Assembly (NCBI GenBank): GCA_031370645.1
Contig: JANMQV010000166.1
Location: forward strand, 1-22,277
Direction of reading: 5' to 3'
DNA length: 22,277 bases
Source: Candidatus Eiseniibacteriota bacterium
GTDB lineage: Bacteria > Eisenbacteria > RBG-16-71-46 > SZUA-252
Made by a program: the position numbers and the translations under genes. The first letter of the stretch is position 1. Each line of letters begins with the position of its first letter. Of this stretch, positions 12,074 through 17,686 are shown piece by piece. The notes beneath the pieces were generated by a model. That model was not told the origin of the DNA and did no database searches. It worked only from the letters and a program-made list of their open reading frames with translations.

Positions 12074-12625
12074 ATGCGACGCCTCGTCCCGACCCTGTTC
12101 GCGCTAGCGCTCCTGACGGCCGGCTGCGGCGACCGGAGCCTCATCCTGACGGTCAACGTGCTCTCATTCCTCGATCCTTCCGATGTCTCCGCCAACTACT
12201 CCGTGCCGGGAGGCCTCCCGTCGGCGACCGTGGACGTGGCCGACCAGACGGTGAATCTGCTCCAGGGCGTGGAGGACGTGACCGACATCGCGTCGGCCAC
12301 CCTCGACATCGCCGCGACCTTCGACAATGTGACTGGGACGGCGAGCGGAACGCTCCTCCTCTACGCCGTGCCGAGCGACTCCGCCTCGCCCTTCGCCTCC
12401 GCGCCGATCGCTTCGATCCCGATCGTGCTCACGCCCGGAACGATCTCGAACGTGAGCACGCGCGTCTCCTCCGACGCGCTGGCGGCGGCCCTGGTGAGCG
12501 ATCGCGCGCGGATCGGAATCCGAATCTCGCTCGACACCTCGGCCACGCCGCTCCTCCAGACGGTCTCGGGGACCGAGACGATCACGCAGCTCCTCGCCAC
12601 CGTGGTGACGAAGAAGCAGCTCTAG
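12074..12625 (+). CDS. Uncharacterised lipoprotein, Ser/Thr/Ala-rich and predicted beta-rich
   Basis: MRRLVPTLFALALLTAGC lipobox; SD AGGAG; starts 9 nt after the OMP stop. Confidence 0.75.
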   Translation: MRRLVPTLFALALLTAGCGDRSLILTVNVLSFLDPSDVSANYSVPGGLPSATVDVADQTVNLLQGVEDVTDIASATLDIAATFDNVTGTASGTLLLYAVPSDSASPFASAPIASIPIVLTPGTISNVSTRVSSDALAAALVSDRARIGIRISLDTSATPLLQTVSGTETITQLLATVVTKKQL

Positions 12626-12640
12626 CCGGGCGCCGCGCCG

Positions 12641-13750
12641 CTAGCGGACGCGGCGATGATTCGTCAGGAGCATCTCGCAGACGACGGGCCCCGGGTCGAA
12701 GGGAATCACCTCGCGCGATTTCGCCTGCGCGTTCCTCACCTCGCGGATCTGAATCGAGATCCCTTCCGCTCGCGCCATCCCCGGATCCTTGATCTCCTTC
12801 TCGCTCACCCCGTGATATCCCGCTGCCGTGAAGAGAATGGCGGCCGACCCGAACGCCCACTCTTCCCCGTTCGGCTGGCGCTGTTTTTGGGTCATCCAGA
12901 AGAGATTCTTCCAGGTCCGGGCGTAGAAGGCCCGGAGGGAGTCCTGCGTCCCCGGCACCCAATAGGCGCGCACCCGGGCGTTCGCGTCGTCGAGACCGCC
13001 CGCCGTCATCCACTCGGCGATCCCGGCCGATTCCCGCATCGACAAGACTGCCTTCGGGGGCACCGGGAATGTCTCCCACTCCGAGAGGAGGCGGAGCAGC
13101 GGGCTGTCCTTCTTCTTCCCCGCCCGAAGCGTGCGAAGTGCTCCGGCATCGTCTCCGCTCAGCATCTGGTAGGTCGCGAGCGCCGTGCGGTAGGCATTGG
13201 AGTCGGGGGCGAGTTCCACCGCCTTCCCCGCCGCCTCGAGCGCCTGCGGCAACTGGGAGCGCTTCGGATCGATCGCCAGTTTGTCGTAGATCGGCTCGAA
13301 GAGTCCGTAGACGAGCGACTTCCAGTAGTAGACCTCGGCGTTTTTCGGCTCCCGCTTGGTCGCCTCCTCGAGACGCGCCAGACAGTCGGCCACCTTCTTC
13401 TTGGAGTCGGCCGCGCGCGCGAAGTGGTCGAGCGGCATTCCCGCTGAATCGACCGGCGCTTGCTGAGGCGAAAGCGCCTCCTCCGCGAGCCGAAGCTTCA
13501 CGAAGATCAGGACCGCGGGGACGTCGTCCTTGTGTTTCGTGAGGAACGCGGCCGTCCTCCCTCGTGCCGCCACGACGAGCCGAGTCAGCGATTCGGGGTC
13601 GCTCGGCGTAAAGCCGCGGACGAGCGAGTCCGCCAGGGCGCGCTCCGTCGCCAATTCCTTGGTCGACGCCGGGCCGCGTGAACAGGCGCCAACGATCAGC
13701 GTGAGGGCTGCCACCATGCCCCACACTGGGGTCATCCACGAACGACGCAC
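12641..13750 (-). CDS. Putative lipoprotein with TPR-like repeats
   Basis: LIVGAC lipobox; TPR-like segments EPKNAEVYYWKSLVY and AVELAPDSNAYRTALATYQ; GTG start with SD GGAGG. Confidence 0.7.
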   Translation of the reverse strand: MRRSWMTPVWGMVAALTLIVGACSRGPASTKELATERALADSLVRGFTPSDPESLTRLVVAARGRTAAFLTKHKDDVPAVLIFVKLRLAEEALSPQQAPVDSAGMPLDHFARAADSKKKVADCLARLEEATKREPKNAEVYYWKSLVYGLFEPIYDKLAIDPKRSQLPQALEAAGKAVELAPDSNAYRTALATYQMLSGDDAGALRTLRAGKKKDSPLLRLLSEWETFPVPPKAVLSMRESAGIAEWMTAGGLDDANARVRAYWVPGTQDSLRAFYARTWKNLFWMTQKQRQPNGEEWAFGSAAILFTAAGYHGVSEKEIKDPGMARAEGISIQIREVRNAQAKSREVIPFDPGPVVCEMLLTNHRRVR

Positions 13751-13763
13751 GAAACCTCCCGCG

Positions 13764-13792
13764 TTGCGGTTCCTTCGAGACTCCCCTAGGAT
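13764..13792 (+). promoter_or_regulatory. Putative sigma70 promoter of the HD/FolE-like/GT2/TrxB-like operon
   Basis: TTGCGG-17 nt-TAGGAT ending 9 nt before ATG 13802. Confidence 0.6.
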
Positions 13793-13801
13793 CAGGAGTC
13801 G

Positions 13802-14401
13802 ATGAGTGACGTCCTAAACACGCCTTCCGCAAACGCGGCAACCGGACTTCTCGACCGCGAGCGGGTGCTGGCGCTCCTTCACGAGTACACCGAGGGACCC
13901 GGCCTCCGCAAGCACGCAGTCGCGGTAGAGGCCGCCATGCGGGCGTACGCCCTTCGGGGTGGTCACGACGAGGCGCTCTGGGGCGCGACGGGACTTCTTC
14001 ACGACATGGACTACGAGAAGCACCCGACGCCCGAGGAACACCCGCGCGTCGGCTGCGGCATTCTGGAGGAGCGGGGCTACCCGGCCGATTTGATCGAGGC
14101 GATCTGGGGCCACGCCGCCTACAGCGGCGTCCCGCGCGTGACGCCGATGGCCAAGACGCTCTTCGCGGTGGACGAACTCTGCGGCCTGATCACAGCCACA
14201 GCGCTCGTCATGCCGAGCAAACGCCTCGCCGACGTGACGCCGGAGTCGGTCGTGAGAAAGATGCGGACCAAGGGTTTCGCCCGGTCCGTGAATCGCGATG
14301 AAATCGAACAGGGCGCCGCCGACCTCGGCGTCCCCTTGGAGGAACACGTGACTTTCGTTCTCACCGCCATGCAGGGCGCCGCCGAGCGCCTCGGACTATG
14401 A
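13802..14401 (+). CDS. HD/HDIG-domain metal-dependent phosphohydrolase
   Basis: RKHAVAVE, GLLHDMDYE, EEHP, GHA, LFAVDELCG and FARSVNRDEI motifs. Confidence 0.9.
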   Translation: MSDVLNTPSANAATGLLDRERVLALLHEYTEGPGLRKHAVAVEAAMRAYALRGGHDEALWGATGLLHDMDYEKHPTPEEHPRVGCGILEERGYPADLIEAIWGHAAYSGVPRVTPMAKTLFAVDELCGLITATALVMPSKRLADVTPESVVRKMRTKGFARSVNRDEIEQGAADLGVPLEEHVTFVLTAMQGAAERLGL

Positions 14402-15012
14402 GCCCCGCGAAGAAGAAGCCAGCGAAGCACAAGTCGGCGAAGCGGGCGAGCCGCCGCCAACTCCGTCCCGGAACGCCCGACGTCGCCGCGCTCACGCGGT
14501 TTCTCCATTCGATCGGAGTCGATACCGAGCACGACGACGAGTACTCGCTTACCGCACCGCTCCTGGCGGAGCTGCTATTCGAACGGACAGCCGGATTGCG
14601 CGAGGAGCCGCCGATGCTTCGCCCCCTTCCCTACCGCGGACGGCCGGGCGAGACCGTGGCGATCGAGGCGATGTACTTCTACGGCCTCTGCCCTCATCAC
14701 CTCGTTCCCTACTTCGGCGAAGTCTCGGTCCGCTACGTGCCGCGCCAGCGCCTCTGCGGCGCAGGGGCGCTCGTTCGCGCGGTCCGCGCGCTCGCGACGG
14801 TGCCGCGGCTCCAGGAAGACCTGACGCAGGAAATCGCCGATCTCGTGGAGCGCTCGCTTGAGCCGCGAGGAGTCTACGTCCACGCCGCGGCGCGCCATCT
14901 CTGCATGGAGCTCCGAGGAGCCGAGGGACGGGCGCGACTCGTGACGGAAGCGCGTCGGGGCGACCCGATCATCGCGTCCGGCGAGAGCGGAGCGGCACGG
15001 CGGCGCCGGTAG
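14398..15012 (+). CDS. GTP cyclohydrolase I (FolE)-like protein, divergent
   Basis: CPHHLVPYFG, YVP, RLQEDLTQEIA and HLCMELRG motifs of FolE; lacks the TPxR and GLSK motifs and the C-terminal helix. Confidence 0.85.
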   Translation: MSPAKKKPAKHKSAKRASRRQLRPGTPDVAALTRFLHSIGVDTEHDDEYSLTAPLLAELLFERTAGLREEPPMLRPLPYRGRPGETVAIEAMYFYGLCPHHLVPYFGEVSVRYVPRQRLCGAGALVRAVRALATVPRLQEDLTQEIADLVERSLEPRGVYVHAAARHLCMELRGAEGRARLVTEARRGDPIIASGESGAARRRR

Positions 15013-15016
15013 CGGC

Positions 15017-15751
15017 GTGGCCTCGATCTCGATTCTCCTCCCGACCCGCGACCGCCCCGAGTTCCTCCTCGAGGCGCTCCAATCGGCCCGGCAGCAGACG
15101 CATCCCGAATTGGAATTGATCCTCATTCGAGACGGTGGGGCGGCGCTCTCAGACGCCGTGCGCGCCGTGCTCGACGGATTCGAGTTCCCCGTGACGCTCG
15201 TGGAGCACGATAGCGAAGCCGAGGGGGCGGCGCGGAGCCGAAATCACGGCGTGGAACGCGCGCGCGGCGACGCGATCGCGTTTCTCGACGACGATGACCT
15301 CTGGGAGCCGCGCCACACCGCCGCCCTGGCGCAAGCGTTCGACGTCGACCCCGCCGCCGACGTTCTCTATTCCGACGCCCGCGTGGTGAAGGAGGAGACG
15401 GGCCAGGTGCGGCGCATCGCGCGAGACTTCGACGGCGGGCACTTCACGCGGGACGGCTTCATCCCCCCGAGCAGCATGGCCGCGAGGCGCGGTGTGTTCG
15501 AGCGCTTCGGGCGCTTTGATTCCGAGTTCACCTACTCCGAGGACTGGGAGTGGCTGATCCGCGTTCACCGCGGCGGCGGAAAGTTGAAGCGCGTACGAGG
15601 CGAGACGGTGACGATTCGAATTCATCCCGGGGGGCTCTCGGCCCTTTCGCCGGAGCGGCTGGCCGAACGGCGCCGCTGCCTGGCGCTGATGTCCGAGCGT
15701 CACGGTCTCGGGCCGATCGAACCGAAGACGTTCTGGGAGATCGCGACTTAG
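15017..15751 (+). CDS. Family 2 (GT-A) glycosyltransferase
   Basis: SILLPTRDR, IRDGG, GAARSRNHGV, IAFLDDDDLW and EDWEW motifs. Confidence 0.92.
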   Translation: MASISILLPTRDRPEFLLEALQSARQQTHPELELILIRDGGAALSDAVRAVLDGFEFPVTLVEHDSEAEGAARSRNHGVERARGDAIAFLDDDDLWEPRHTAALAQAFDVDPAADVLYSDARVVKEETGQVRRIARDFDGGHFTRDGFIPPSSMAARRGVFERFGRFDSEFTYSEDWEWLIRVHRGGGKLKRVRGETVTIRIHPGGLSALSPERLAERRRCLALMSERHGLGPIEPKTFWEIAT

Positions 15752-15753
15752 GC

Positions 15754-16746
15754 ATGTCTCGGGCTTCGCGCACTTCCCCGGCGGTGAAGCGTGCTTCCCC
15801 CAAGCCCGCGCGTCTCGACGTCGTGGTGGTCGGCGCCGGGGTGGCGGGACTCTCCACGGCCCTCTGGCTTCGCGATTTCGGGCTCGACGCGCTGCTGATC
15901 GAGGAGACTTCGTGCCCCGGCGGACAGGTTCACGAGATCCACGCCGCCATTCCCAATTACCTCGCCACGTTCGGCTGGGACGGCGCCCGTCTGGCTGGCG
16001 CGGCGCTGTCGGACGCACGCACGGCGGGGCTCTCGATTCTCGTGGGGGCGCGCGTCACGCGCATCTCCACAAGTGGACGTTGGGTGGAACGCGCCGCGGA
16101 CGACGCCGGTGGCGCGGTCCGAGTTCCGGCTCGGGCGGTGGTACTCGCGACAGGGTTGCGACGTCGCACACTCGGCGTTTCCGGGGAGACCGAGTTTCGC
16201 GATCGCGGCATTTCCCACTCGGCGAATCGTGACCGGGATCGATTCGCCGGGAAGCCGGTTGTCGTCGTTGGCGGGGGCACGGCCGCCGTCGAGGACGCGC
16301 TCCTTTGCGCGGAGCGCGGCTCCGACGTCACACTTCTCCATCGTTCCGCGACGTTCCGCGCGCGGGCCGACTTCCTGGAGCGCGCGCGCGCGAATTCTCG
16401 GATACGATTCACGACGGATGCGGCCGTGACGGGCATCGATGGAACTGACGCGGTGGAGTCGGTCACCTATCGCCTGCGCGGCTCGCGCGCGGACGTACGC
16501 ATTCCCTGCGCCGGCGTCTTCGTCCGGATTGGGTGGGAACCGCGAACGGAACTAGTGCGGAAGCAAATTCGCTGCGACCGCGGCGGTTTCATCCGCGCGG
16601 GCGCGGCCGGCGCCACGAGCGCGCCGTGGGTCTTCGCGGCCGGCGACGTCTGCGCGCCACGCTGTCCCTCGATCGCGAACGCGGTCGGGCAAGGCGCGGC
16701 CGTCGCCTGGGAGATCGCGCGGCGGTTGGGGCGCGTTCGGGGGTAG
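15754..16746 (+). CDS. Thioredoxin-reductase-like FAD/NAD(P)H oxidoreductase lacking CxxC
   Basis: DVVVVGAGVAG, GGQ, VLATG, VVVVGGGTAA, HRSATFRA and VFAAGDV motifs. SHSANRD sits where TrxB has SxCxxCD. Start placed at ATG 15754, 2 nt after the GT2 stop. Confidence 0.88.
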   Translation: MSRASRTSPAVKRASPKPARLDVVVVGAGVAGLSTALWLRDFGLDALLIEETSCPGGQVHEIHAAIPNYLATFGWDGARLAGAALSDARTAGLSILVGARVTRISTSGRWVERAADDAGGAVRVPARAVVLATGLRRRTLGVSGETEFRDRGISHSANRDRDRFAGKPVVVVGGGTAAVEDALLCAERGSDVTLLHRSATFRARADFLERARANSRIRFTTDAAVTGIDGTDAVESVTYRLRGSRADVRIPCAGVFVRIGWEPRTELVRKQIRCDRGGFIRAGAAGATSAPWVFAAGDVCAPRCPSIANAVGQGAAVAWEIARRLGRVRG

Positions 16747-16759
16747 CGGCGGCGGCGGC

Positions 16760-17686
16760 CTAGTAGATGTTCCGCCCCCTCGGTGCCAGCACCGCCAGGG
16801 TGCCGAGAGCGACCAAGGGGCCCGTTAGGTATCCCGGATTCGGCCCCAATCGAATCCCGAAGTGGAGCGTCGTCTCCGAAACAGTGTAATTATCGGGGTA
16901 AAAGCTAACGGTATACCGGCTGACCGTGTACTGGTGCCGTTCGAGGCGCGTGAAAAACGAAGCCGCACCCGCGGCCGAAATCGCCACTTCTCCGAAGTAC
17001 GGAACGCCCCGTTCCTTTCGCGTGGCGGTGTCAATGTTCTGATAGAGACCTTGAGTGGTCTCGATGGCAATCCAGTCGCTCAGATATCGCCGAACGCGAA
17101 CCCCTGCGGATAGCGTTCGATACTCCTCGGACGATTCCATGAACTGTACGACTCCTCCCAATCCCCATCGGGGGGAAAGGTTCTTCATTCCCCCAATCCC
17201 CGTCGTCAGCAACGTGGAGCTTCTCCCCGTGTTGGTCGTCCCGCCAGCGCGGGAGCCAATCCCGAATTCGAGAACGAGGTAACTCCGGCGTCGCCGCTCA
17301 GGCGTCGAGTGAAACGGCCGCATCACCCAGGAAGCAAAAGAACGATTCTCTTCGGGACTTGGAACTCCGAACGACGACCGCCTTCGAAGCATCGAGTCGA
17401 GTCGATCAATCCCTTCCGCATCTTTGATCGATCGGATCTTATTGGCCGTGAGGTATCCCGTCTCACCGGACGGTGTGCGATACCGGAACGAGTCCATGCT
17501 CCAGTAGGAGACATAGACGGCCTCGAACCCGGGGCCTTTCACGAGATAGATGGTCAGCGTCGATTCGGGCGGGGCCGTGGAATCTGTAGTGAACGGTTCG
17601 GCGGCCGCGGAAGCGAGCGTCGATCGCAGGGGAATGAGAAAGGCGAGGAGAACCCCTAGGCAGAAGATGGTGCGAGAGCGGCGCAT
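16760..17686 (-). CDS. Secreted or membrane hypothetical protein with a beta-barrel-like C-terminal domain
   Basis: Signal peptide; SD GGAGG; amphipathic strands; hydrophobic C-terminal segment; homologous to 18617-19270. Confidence 0.7.
   Translation of the reverse strand: MRRSRTIFCLGVLLAFLIPLRSTLASAAAEPFTTDSTAPPESTLTIYLVKGPGFEAVYVSYWSMDSFRYRTPSGETGYLTANKIRSIKDAEGIDRLDSMLRRRSSFGVPSPEENRSFASWVMRPFHSTPERRRRSYLVLEFGIGSRAGGTTNTGRSSTLLTTGIGGMKNLSPRWGLGGVVQFMESSEEYRTLSAGVRVRRYLSDWIAIETTQGLYQNIDTATRKERGVPYFGEVAISAAGAASFFTRLERHQYTVSRYTVSFYPDNYTVSETTLHFGIRLGPNPGYLTGPLVALGTLAVLAPRGRNIY

Follow-up and report, generated by a model that had tools for sequence, protein, structure and literature searches.

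A strongly derived, constrained FolE ortholog without Arg65 and the C-terminal helix in Candidatus Eisenbacteria

GTP cyclohydrolase I (FolE) is among the most conserved enzymes of cofactor synthesis, and both its residue Arg65 and its C-terminal helix are commonly taken to be universal features. In the canonical enzyme, Arg65 is contributed by another subunit and the C-terminal helix builds a central five-helix bundle. QueD uses the triphosphate. In archaea, MptA works with the HD-domain protein MptB, and the first folate steps can proceed with other phosphate states. Here we describe a FolE-like protein encoded in a stretch of 22,277 nucleotides from a Candidatus Eiseniibacteriota bacterium (assembly GCA_031370645.1, contig JANMQV010000166.1, positions 1 to 22,277 of the forward strand; hereafter the window). 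The protein is a strongly derived, constrained FolE ortholog and the organism's only GTP cyclohydrolase I, and it lacks both Arg65 and the C-terminal helix. It is an unusual FolE variant rather than a new kind of enzyme.

The phosphate ligands of Thermus thermophilus GCH1 are given as Lys134, Arg137, Arg183 and Arg64 in the accessible part of a paper on Plasmodium falciparum GCH1 (PMC4005822). The same part of that source reports that deletion of the C-terminal helix of P. falciparum GCH1 left the complementation of folE-deficient E. coli unaffected. For the human enzyme, R216 is described in the available passages of PMC7750480 as contacting the beta and gamma phosphates; by its spacing from the Zn-binding cysteine, R216 is the equivalent of Arg185 and is kept in the window protein as R173. 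On the individual residues of the triphosphate site, PMC6718149, PMC4790348 and PMC9862521 offered general remarks only. In Chlamydia, GTP cyclohydrolase II (RibA) and a promiscuous TrpF make dihydroneopterin monophosphate and bypass FolE and FolQ, as stated in the accessible text of PMC4161248.

The open reading frame (ORF) of the window protein is a real gene encoding a member of the FolE family. Its product matches the Pfam profile PF01227 (GTP_cyclohydroI) with 110.6 bits against a cut-off of 27, residues 31-188 being aligned to profile positions 4-162 of 179. The nearest solved proteins found with HMMER are all GTP cyclohydrolase I, headed by the enzyme of Listeria (4uqf, 6e-21) and followed by those of M. 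tuberculosis, T. thermophilus, rat, human and E. coli. An AlphaFold2 (AF2) model computed with 27 relatives as input has a T-fold core and a mean pLDDT of 82.9, and its top Foldseek matches are again all GTP cyclohydrolase I (E about 1e-15, TM 0.58-0.64). QueF models matched residues 86-163 weakly and below their cut-offs (PF14489 with 19.3 vs 27.3 bits, TIGR03139 with 30.4 vs 86.9 bits). The FolE2/MptA profile (PF02649) gave no match to the window protein, for which Pfam returns PF01227 and the weak PF14489 only. An ORF on the opposite strand (14575-15126) was rejected as spurious, since it is merely open, its GC content by codon position does not distinguish it from the sense frame, and the sense frame has homologs.

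For the comparison of residues, positions were numbered according to E. coli FolE taken from NC_000913.3, the literature number being the position in the encoded protein minus one, and alignments were made with MAFFT and HMMER. The survey comprised 102 FolEs, of which 32 belong to the family of the window gene, here called f1, 17 to further families of the phylum and 52 to other phyla, the last being that of E. coli. The equivalents of the Zn ligands, the catalytic histidines, the Gln-Glu pair and Arg139 are kept in all 32 f1 sequences, and the Zn ligands (C98, H101 and C169 in the window protein) are invariant wherever the f1 sequences cover these positions. The Arg185 equivalent is Arg in 29 and Lys in two f1 sequences and is absent from one truncated sequence. 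An initial annotation, made from the letters of the window alone, had listed the motifs C..HH (as CPHH), QE and HxC...RG as retained, which the alignments to solved proteins and to E. coli FolE bear out. It had also described the change of TPHRIAK to TAPLLAE and of GLSKINR to GAGALVR; these changes are real and no accident of one sequence, as those at positions 65 and 136 extend to the entire family (32 of 32).

From these two motifs, the annotation had counted four lost triphosphate contacts, half of which stand. Position 68 is freely variable in ordinary FolEs (K, R, D, Q, S, E or N), and the glycine found at position 135 in 28 of 32 f1 sequences is also present in 15 of 52 FolEs of other phyla. 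Because Lys68 and Ser135 vary in ordinary FolEs, their loss has little weight, which leaves Arg65 and Lys136 as the sole losses with a bearing on the binding of phosphate. Throughout f1 (32 of 32 in each case), position 136 is Ala or Ser, position 111 is Pro and position 149, an otherwise invariant Gln, is Arg. A column scan for further changes fixed in f1 at invariant or near-invariant sites yielded Pro63 to Ala, Ser108 to Gly, Gln149 to Arg and Lys/Arg102 to Glu. Three new arginines, R63, R68 and R137, are invariant in f1, and at fixed positions three basic residues were lost and three were gained. In the alignment, this pattern suggests that the basic surface was rebuilt and not simply lost.

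The final helix had been noted as missing, and both the Pfam match, which ends at position 162 of 179, and the AF2 model, which has its last strand at residues 180-188 and no helix beyond residue 188, agree with this. The helix is absent from all 27 aligned relatives. Because P. falciparum GCH1 without its C-terminal helix still complemented, the natural loss of the helix in f1 and in the sister family f2 would be compatible with activity. The basic N-terminal tail and the RRRR end are present as described. Across the 27 f1 relatives, however, the N-terminal tail varies from 7 to 139 and the C-terminal tail from 3 to 20 amino acids, and several members are nearly tailless. With neither length nor sequence kept, the basic tails are not a functional element that the family conserves, and this speaks against nucleic acid as a substrate; the earlier suggestion that the protein acts on guanine in nucleic acid finds no backing here.

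Pairwise dN/dS values (Nei-Gojobori) of the FolE-like gene against four close relatives, L002-L005, were 0.046-0.064, dS being saturated for more distant pairs. The corresponding values were 0.054-0.111 for the neighbouring HD phosphohydrolase gene and 0.099-0.154 for the neighbouring glycosyltransferase gene. Among 27 aligned relatives 37 columns are invariant, every catalytic residue included, and the frame is intact in all relatives. The proposal of a selective loss without decay around intact metal and guanine sites is upheld by these values, which indicate strong purifying selection.

The nearest named relatives of the f1 protein are from Candidatus Eisenbacteria metagenome-assembled genomes (MAGs), and the labels of 139 database relatives, where present, read GTP cyclohydrolase I of Candidatus Eisenbacteria. 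A scan with one genome per species gave 28 loci with an f1-type gene (52-93% identity), 22 of them labelled Candidatus Eisenbacteria. The other six (L008, L010, L013, L014, L023 and L027) are located in MAGs labelled Hyphomicrobiales, Acidobacteriota, Bacteroidota, Limnocylindrales, Dormiibacterota or Binatia; because Eisenbacteria-type synteny runs through the whole extent of these loci, they are probably mis-binned contigs.

Within the phylum, a PF01227 match was present in 139 of 151 genomes, nearly all of which had a single one. Across the families, numbered f1 to f17, the scores are graded. Canonical FolEs with 230-265 bits over the whole profile were found in f3, f4, f5, f6, f12, f13-f16 and most of f9, followed by f8 and f11 (190-215 bits), f7 (166-181 bits, full length), f2 (about 166-187 bits, profile end at 164-172) and f1, which has the lowest scores of the phylum (86-133 bits, profile end near 163). 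Replacement of Lys136 is already seen in f2, f7 and f8 and that of Glu111 in f2 and f7, and the C-terminal helix is already degenerate in f2; alterations of Arg65, Pro63, Ser108 and Gln149 are confined to f1. A maximum-likelihood tree built from 35 sequences recovers f1 as a monophyletic group (100/100), and the mean core identity of f1 to the other groups is 26-37%, that of the other groups among themselves 30-51%. In f1 the genes follow in the order FolE, glycosyltransferase, thioredoxin-reductase (TrxR)-like flavoprotein. Since a FolE gene followed by a gene for the TrxR-like flavoprotein is common to f1 (24 of 28 loci) and f2 (four of six loci), the window gene is a vertically inherited, fast-diverged FolE ortholog and no paralog. 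PF01227 matches were not found in three f1 genomes, two of which also lack the adjacent HD gene, the HD match of the third being cut by the contig end; these cases look like assembly gaps. In one f11 protein of full length (L097, genome G032; 191.9 bits), CEHH is replaced by CRDH, which changes the catalytic His112 to Asp, and Asp also occupies the Arg139 position.

The source genome (3.0 Mb, 247 contigs, 95% complete) has the window gene as its sole PF01227 match. FolE2 (PF02649) was not found in this 95%-complete genome nor in 34 genomes of the family. The initial annotation had considered a subunit of a hetero-oligomer, which finds no support, as the source genome lacks a second FolE homolog that could be the partner and the match in the genomes of the phylum is nearly always a single one. 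FolP is present, as are FolB and FolK, whose genes adjoin each other. QueD scored 98.9 bits (equivalog cut-off 89.25), and its gene adjoins one for a QueE-like radical-SAM protein (G000:C234, L084:768-1851). A tRNA-guanine transglycosylase is also encoded; QueC (PF06508) was not found in the 95%-complete genome. Across the f1 genomes, FolK is present in 34 of 34, FolE2 in 0 of 34 and PTPS/QueD in 31 of 34. Taken alone, this context means that the window protein must supply the pterin precursor, and the gene set therefore favours the ordinary reaction with a rebuilt phosphate site. Of the earlier idea of a changed substrate rather than decay, the selective loss and the purifying selection thus remain, whereas the gene context speaks for the unchanged substrate. 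Neither FolE nor QueD was found in the f10 genomes (0 of 3 each), and f1 keeps the two, which fits a FolE that supplies QueD.

The FolE-like gene is the second of four closely spaced genes (Table 1). The HD gene adjoins FolE in 27 of 28 f1-type loci; in other families it sits elsewhere in the genome. Phylum-wide it was found in 127 of 151 genomes, including genomes with canonical FolE, and it was not found in f7, which has FolE. A gain of the HD gene together with the FolE change is ruled out by this phylum-wide presence, the adjacency alone being specific to f1. For the HD protein, neither a solved relative nor a named close relative was found, and its ESM Atlas clusters bear generic labels (HD domain / metal-dependent phosphohydrolase). 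The phosphates of the FolE product may be a target of this protein. The glycosyltransferase gene is present in 23 of 28 f1-type loci. The TrxR-like flavoprotein reaches 196 bits against a TrxB cut-off of 343. The matches of all these operon neighbours carry no known pterin function. A promoter and terminator scan of positions 12500-17000 gave nothing above the shuffled background. The two ORFs upstream of the HD gene are kept there in most f1-type loci (48-88% identity). Elsewhere the window encodes the housekeeping proteins NadC, a biotin/lipoate ligase-family protein, UvrB, valyl-tRNA synthetase, EF-P, an alpha/beta hydrolase and a DAO-type oxidoreductase, and its GC content is even (0.62-0.69). 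Because of these housekeeping surroundings, the FolE-like operon is assigned to the core genome and not to an island.

Table 1. Features of the window around the FolE-like gene. Residue equivalents are given in E. coli FolE numbering, followed by the residue of the window protein.
Feature	Position	Strand	Remarks
ORF, 468 aa	10658-12064	+	No Pfam or NCBIfam match; upstream of HD gene
ORF, 183 aa	12074-12625	+	No Pfam or NCBIfam match; upstream of HD gene
HD/HDIG phosphohydrolase gene	13802..14401	+	Stop overlaps start of FolE-like gene (ATGA)
FolE-like ORF	14398..15012	+	204 aa plus stop; single-copy GTP cyclohydrolase I ortholog of family f1
Lys/Arg-rich N-terminal tail, residues 1-26	14398..14475	+	Predicted disordered, pLDDT 48-57 over residues 1-20
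TAPLLAE (canonical TPxR(V/I)Ax)	14551..14571	+	Pro63 to A53, Arg65 to L55, Lys68 to E58
GLCPHH	14683..14700	+	Zn ligands Cys110/His113 = C98/H101; catalytic His112 = H100; Ser108 to Gly; Glu111 to Pro (P99)
GAGALVRAVR (canonical GLSKxxR)	14758..14787	+	Ser135 to G123, Lys136 to A124, Arg139 = R127; R130 invariant in f1
PRLQE	14803..14817	+	Guanine-anchoring Gln151-Glu152 = Q139-E140; Gln149 to Arg (R137)
RHLCMELRG	14893..14919	+	Catalytic His179 = H167, Zn ligand Cys181 = C169, phosphate ligand Arg185 = R173; G174 follows
Short C-terminal tail ending RRRR	14962..15009	+	Predicted disordered, pLDDT 53-64; canonical FolE has central-bundle helix there
Family-2 glycosyltransferase gene	15017..15751	+	GTG start 5 nt past FolE-like stop
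TrxR-like flavoprotein gene	15754..16746	+	Probable ATG start 3 nt past glycosyltransferase stop

[quoted passage not shown] GTP would remain the substrate, and the new arginines would stand in for the lost ones. In such an enzyme, the imidazole ring of GTP would be opened by Zn-activated water, with Zn held by the equivalents of Cys110, His113 and Cys181, while the equivalents of Gln151 and Glu152 would anchor the guanine and those of His112 and His179 would serve ring opening and rearrangement. Dihydroneopterin triphosphate would be released and passed on to FolB, FolK and FolP after dephosphorylation and to QueD directly. The central C-terminal helix would have been lost first, as it is degenerate in f2. 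On the f1 stem, the phosphate-binding surface would then have been rebuilt: Arg65, Lys136 and the basic residue 102 were dropped, R63, R68 and R137 (the last in place of Gln149) appeared, and Arg139 and Arg185 were retained. Family and fold, the kept residues, selection, the single copy, the graded series within the phylum and the pathway genes jointly favour a FolE with the same chemistry.

Several observations weigh against an unchanged reaction. All NCBIfam FolE cut-offs are missed, the best model being NF006826 (115.2 vs 162 bits), and TIGR00063 giving 95.6 vs 181.6 bits. The f1 stem has a length of 1.68 changes per column vs 0.03-0.7 on other inner branches. Position 65 is Leu in 32 of 32 f1 sequences and Arg in 70 of 70 FolEs outside f1, and with Pro63, Ser108, Glu111, Lys136 and Gln149 a total of six sites that are invariant or nearly so elsewhere are altered together on this one stem, which is much for an enzyme with exactly the same reaction. 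When the ligands of the T. thermophilus enzyme were mapped by a constant offset from the Zn ligands, only two of the four residues of its triphosphate patch were recovered in the window protein, Arg137 and Arg183 (as R127 and R173), Arg64 and Lys134 being lost. Furthermore, three f10 genomes (G025, G027 and G072, 90-98% complete) and the one f17 genome (G107, 97%) have FolB and FolK, and in these four genomes FolE was found neither by Pfam nor by the f1-family profile, nor was FolE2 found. Because these relatives keep FolB and FolK without FolE or FolE2, a FolE-independent source of dihydroneopterin is suggested to exist in the phylum, and the argument from pathway context for f1 is therefore weakened. 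At least two matches to GTP cyclohydrolase II (PF00925) were present in 16 of 32 f1 genomes, 43 of 60 f2 genomes, all four f10 and f17 genomes (3/3 and 1/1, two matches in each genome), one of six f7 genomes (G015 included) and one of two f16 genomes, and in none of the 47 genomes from the other eleven families, nearly all with canonical or near-canonical FolE; these counts are matches and not copy numbers, and the pattern is confounded by common descent.

The extra GTP cyclohydrolase II of the source genome is a stand-alone protein of 248 aa (219 bits; G000:C61:2183-2926, L109:1384-2130) with no folate genes beside it, and the GTP cyclohydrolases II fall into at least two paralog classes with about 63-95% and about 54-63% identity. 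Such redundancy could be the reason why FolE was free to drift or to be lost in these lineages. In genus g2 of f1, 10 of 11 genomes have a single PF00925 match and keep the same FolE-like gene. Because of this retention, and because of the co-distribution of FolE and QueD in f10 and f1, a working FolE in f1 is favoured.

It is possible, if rather doubtful, that the chemistry is the same and the phosphate specificity or the product is altered, with GDP, GMP or guanosine as substrate or with release of a pterin that carries a mono- or cyclic phosphate. In that case FolB would receive dihydroneopterin (mono)phosphate with no need for a dedicated pyrophosphatase, and the translationally coupled HD phosphohydrolase might take part. 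The loss of two of the four named phosphate ligands, among them the invariant Arg65, points this way, as does the HD gene, which adjoins FolE, with an ATGA overlap, only in the Arg65-less f1. Yet the HD gene is phylum-wide (127 of 151 genomes), accompanies canonical FolE elsewhere and was not found in the FolE-bearing f7; QueD, a triphosphate user, is kept in 31 of 34 f1 genomes; and the new fixed arginines could rebuild a triphosphate site. A precedent for direct formation of dihydroneopterin monophosphate without FolE and FolQ is given by RibA and TrpF of Chlamydia in the part of PMC4161248 available, but Arg139 and Arg185 are kept in f1, and the human equivalent of Arg185 contacts the beta and gamma phosphates according to the accessible passages of PMC7750480. 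A role outside folate synthesis is unlikely. The precursors would then come from a FolE-independent route and the protein would serve another guanine or pterin reaction, such as the 7-deazaguanine branch alone or an unknown product of the HD-FolE-glycosyltransferase-flavoprotein operon, in line with the f10 and f17 genomes that have FolB and FolK without FolE or FolE2, with the confinement of extra GTP cyclohydrolase II to families with diverged or missing FolE (exceptions: one of six f7 and one of two f16 genomes), with the long stem branch followed by strong constraint, and with the tight and conserved four-gene operon. However, the g2 genomes with one GTP cyclohydrolase II match (10 of 11) still keep the gene, all residues for the full FolE reaction are present, the operon neighbours are without known pterin function, and the co-distribution, based on matches and not on copy numbers, is confounded by shared ancestry.

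The remaining readings are less probable still. That the protein performs the second half-reaction only, with Amadori rearrangement and ring closure of the ring-opened monophosphate that the stand-alone GTP cyclohydrolase II forms, like TrpF of Chlamydia (PMC4161248, in its accessible part), would match the reduced basic patch with a substrate of one phosphate and the extra GTP cyclohydrolase II match in half of f1; we consider it very improbable, since the Zn triad needed for the hydrolytic first half is invariant and the extra enzyme is missing from 16 of 32 f1 genomes. Slightly less credible again is a non-catalytic or nucleic-acid-directed protein, either a subunit in a hetero-oligomer with another T-fold protein or one that reaches guanine in RNA or DNA via its basic tails. 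The basic N-terminal tail, the terminal RRRR and the weak QueF-family matches (PF14489, 19.3 bits; TIGR03139, 30.4 bits) could be taken to hint at it, but the QueF matches are below the cut-offs, the genome has no second FolE-family gene, and the tails are variable in length, with hardly any tail left in several f1 proteins. A decaying gene or pseudo-enzyme would explain the lowest Pfam scores of the phylum and the missed NCBIfam cut-offs, yet a dN/dS of about 0.05, a frame that is intact in all relatives and 37 invariant columns among 27 sequences leave it hardly any probability. The reading as a GTP cyclohydrolase I with its ordinary reaction and a rebuilt phosphate site is the one that we prefer.

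An entire bacterial family thus lives on a sole FolE without Arg65 and helix that is under strong selection, and the f1 FolE constitutes a natural experiment in the rebuilding of a triphosphate site and of an oligomer core. Among the papers listed by a literature search on FolE, GTP cyclohydrolase I and T-fold paralogs, no such variant is described, as judged by title and abstract; a search on Eisenbacteria and folate listed papers with single mentions of either term only. The automatic label GTP cyclohydrolase I in this clade rests on sub-threshold similarity. Together with the FolE-less f10 and f17, which keep FolB and FolK, the f1 FolE suggests that the start of folate synthesis varies in an undescribed way in this soil phylum, which is widespread and uncultured. 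Conceivably, though we give this little credence, the f1 FolE has been freed from the triphosphate and turns GMP, GDP or guanosine, or else the monophosphate that GTP cyclohydrolase II releases, into dihydroneopterin (mono)phosphate for FolB without a FolQ-type pyrophosphatase, possibly with the HD phosphohydrolase; if this were true, it would be one outcome of a wider rewiring in the phylum, along with the FolE-less f10 and f17 and the extra stand-alone GTP cyclohydrolase II.

Compared with known systems, the f1 locus recalls archaeal MptA and its HD-domain partner MptB, an HD phosphohydrolase gene adjoining the cyclohydrolase gene in f1, but a homolog of FolE2/MptA was not found in the source genome or in 34 f1 genomes. 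The bypass by RibA and TrpF in Chlamydia, as far as the accessible text of PMC4161248 describes it, likewise shows that folate synthesis can start with other phosphate states, and extra GTP cyclohydrolase II matches occur in the lineages concerned; no evidence ties the window protein to either of these FolE-independent routes. QueF and QueF-like proteins share the homologous T-fold, whereas the window protein retains the FolE Zn/His motifs and not the QueF catalytic set. Helix-deleted P. falciparum GCH1 likewise has no last helix and complemented folE-deficient E. coli (PMC4005822, available part), but this construct was made in the laboratory by truncating an enzyme that is canonical in all other respects, whereas the loss in f1 is natural and accompanied by substitutions close to the active site. 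Closer is the FolE of sister family f2, which is also single-copy and followed by a TrxR-like gene, has a degenerate helix region and has lost Lys136 (to Gly or Ala) and Glu111 (to Val), but in contrast to f1 retains Arg65, Pro63, Ser108, Ser135 and Gln149. From canonical FolE (GCYH-IA, PF01227; E. coli, T. thermophilus, L. monocytogenes, M. tuberculosis, human) the window protein differs by Arg65Leu, Pro63Ala, Ser108Gly, Glu111Pro, Lys136Ala and Gln149Arg and by its score below the NCBIfam cut-offs. It shares with canonical FolE the T-fold, the Cys/His/Cys Zn triad, both catalytic histidines, the Gln-Glu guanine anchor, the equivalents of Arg139 and Arg185, and a single-copy housekeeping position in a genome with FolB, FolK, FolP and QueD.

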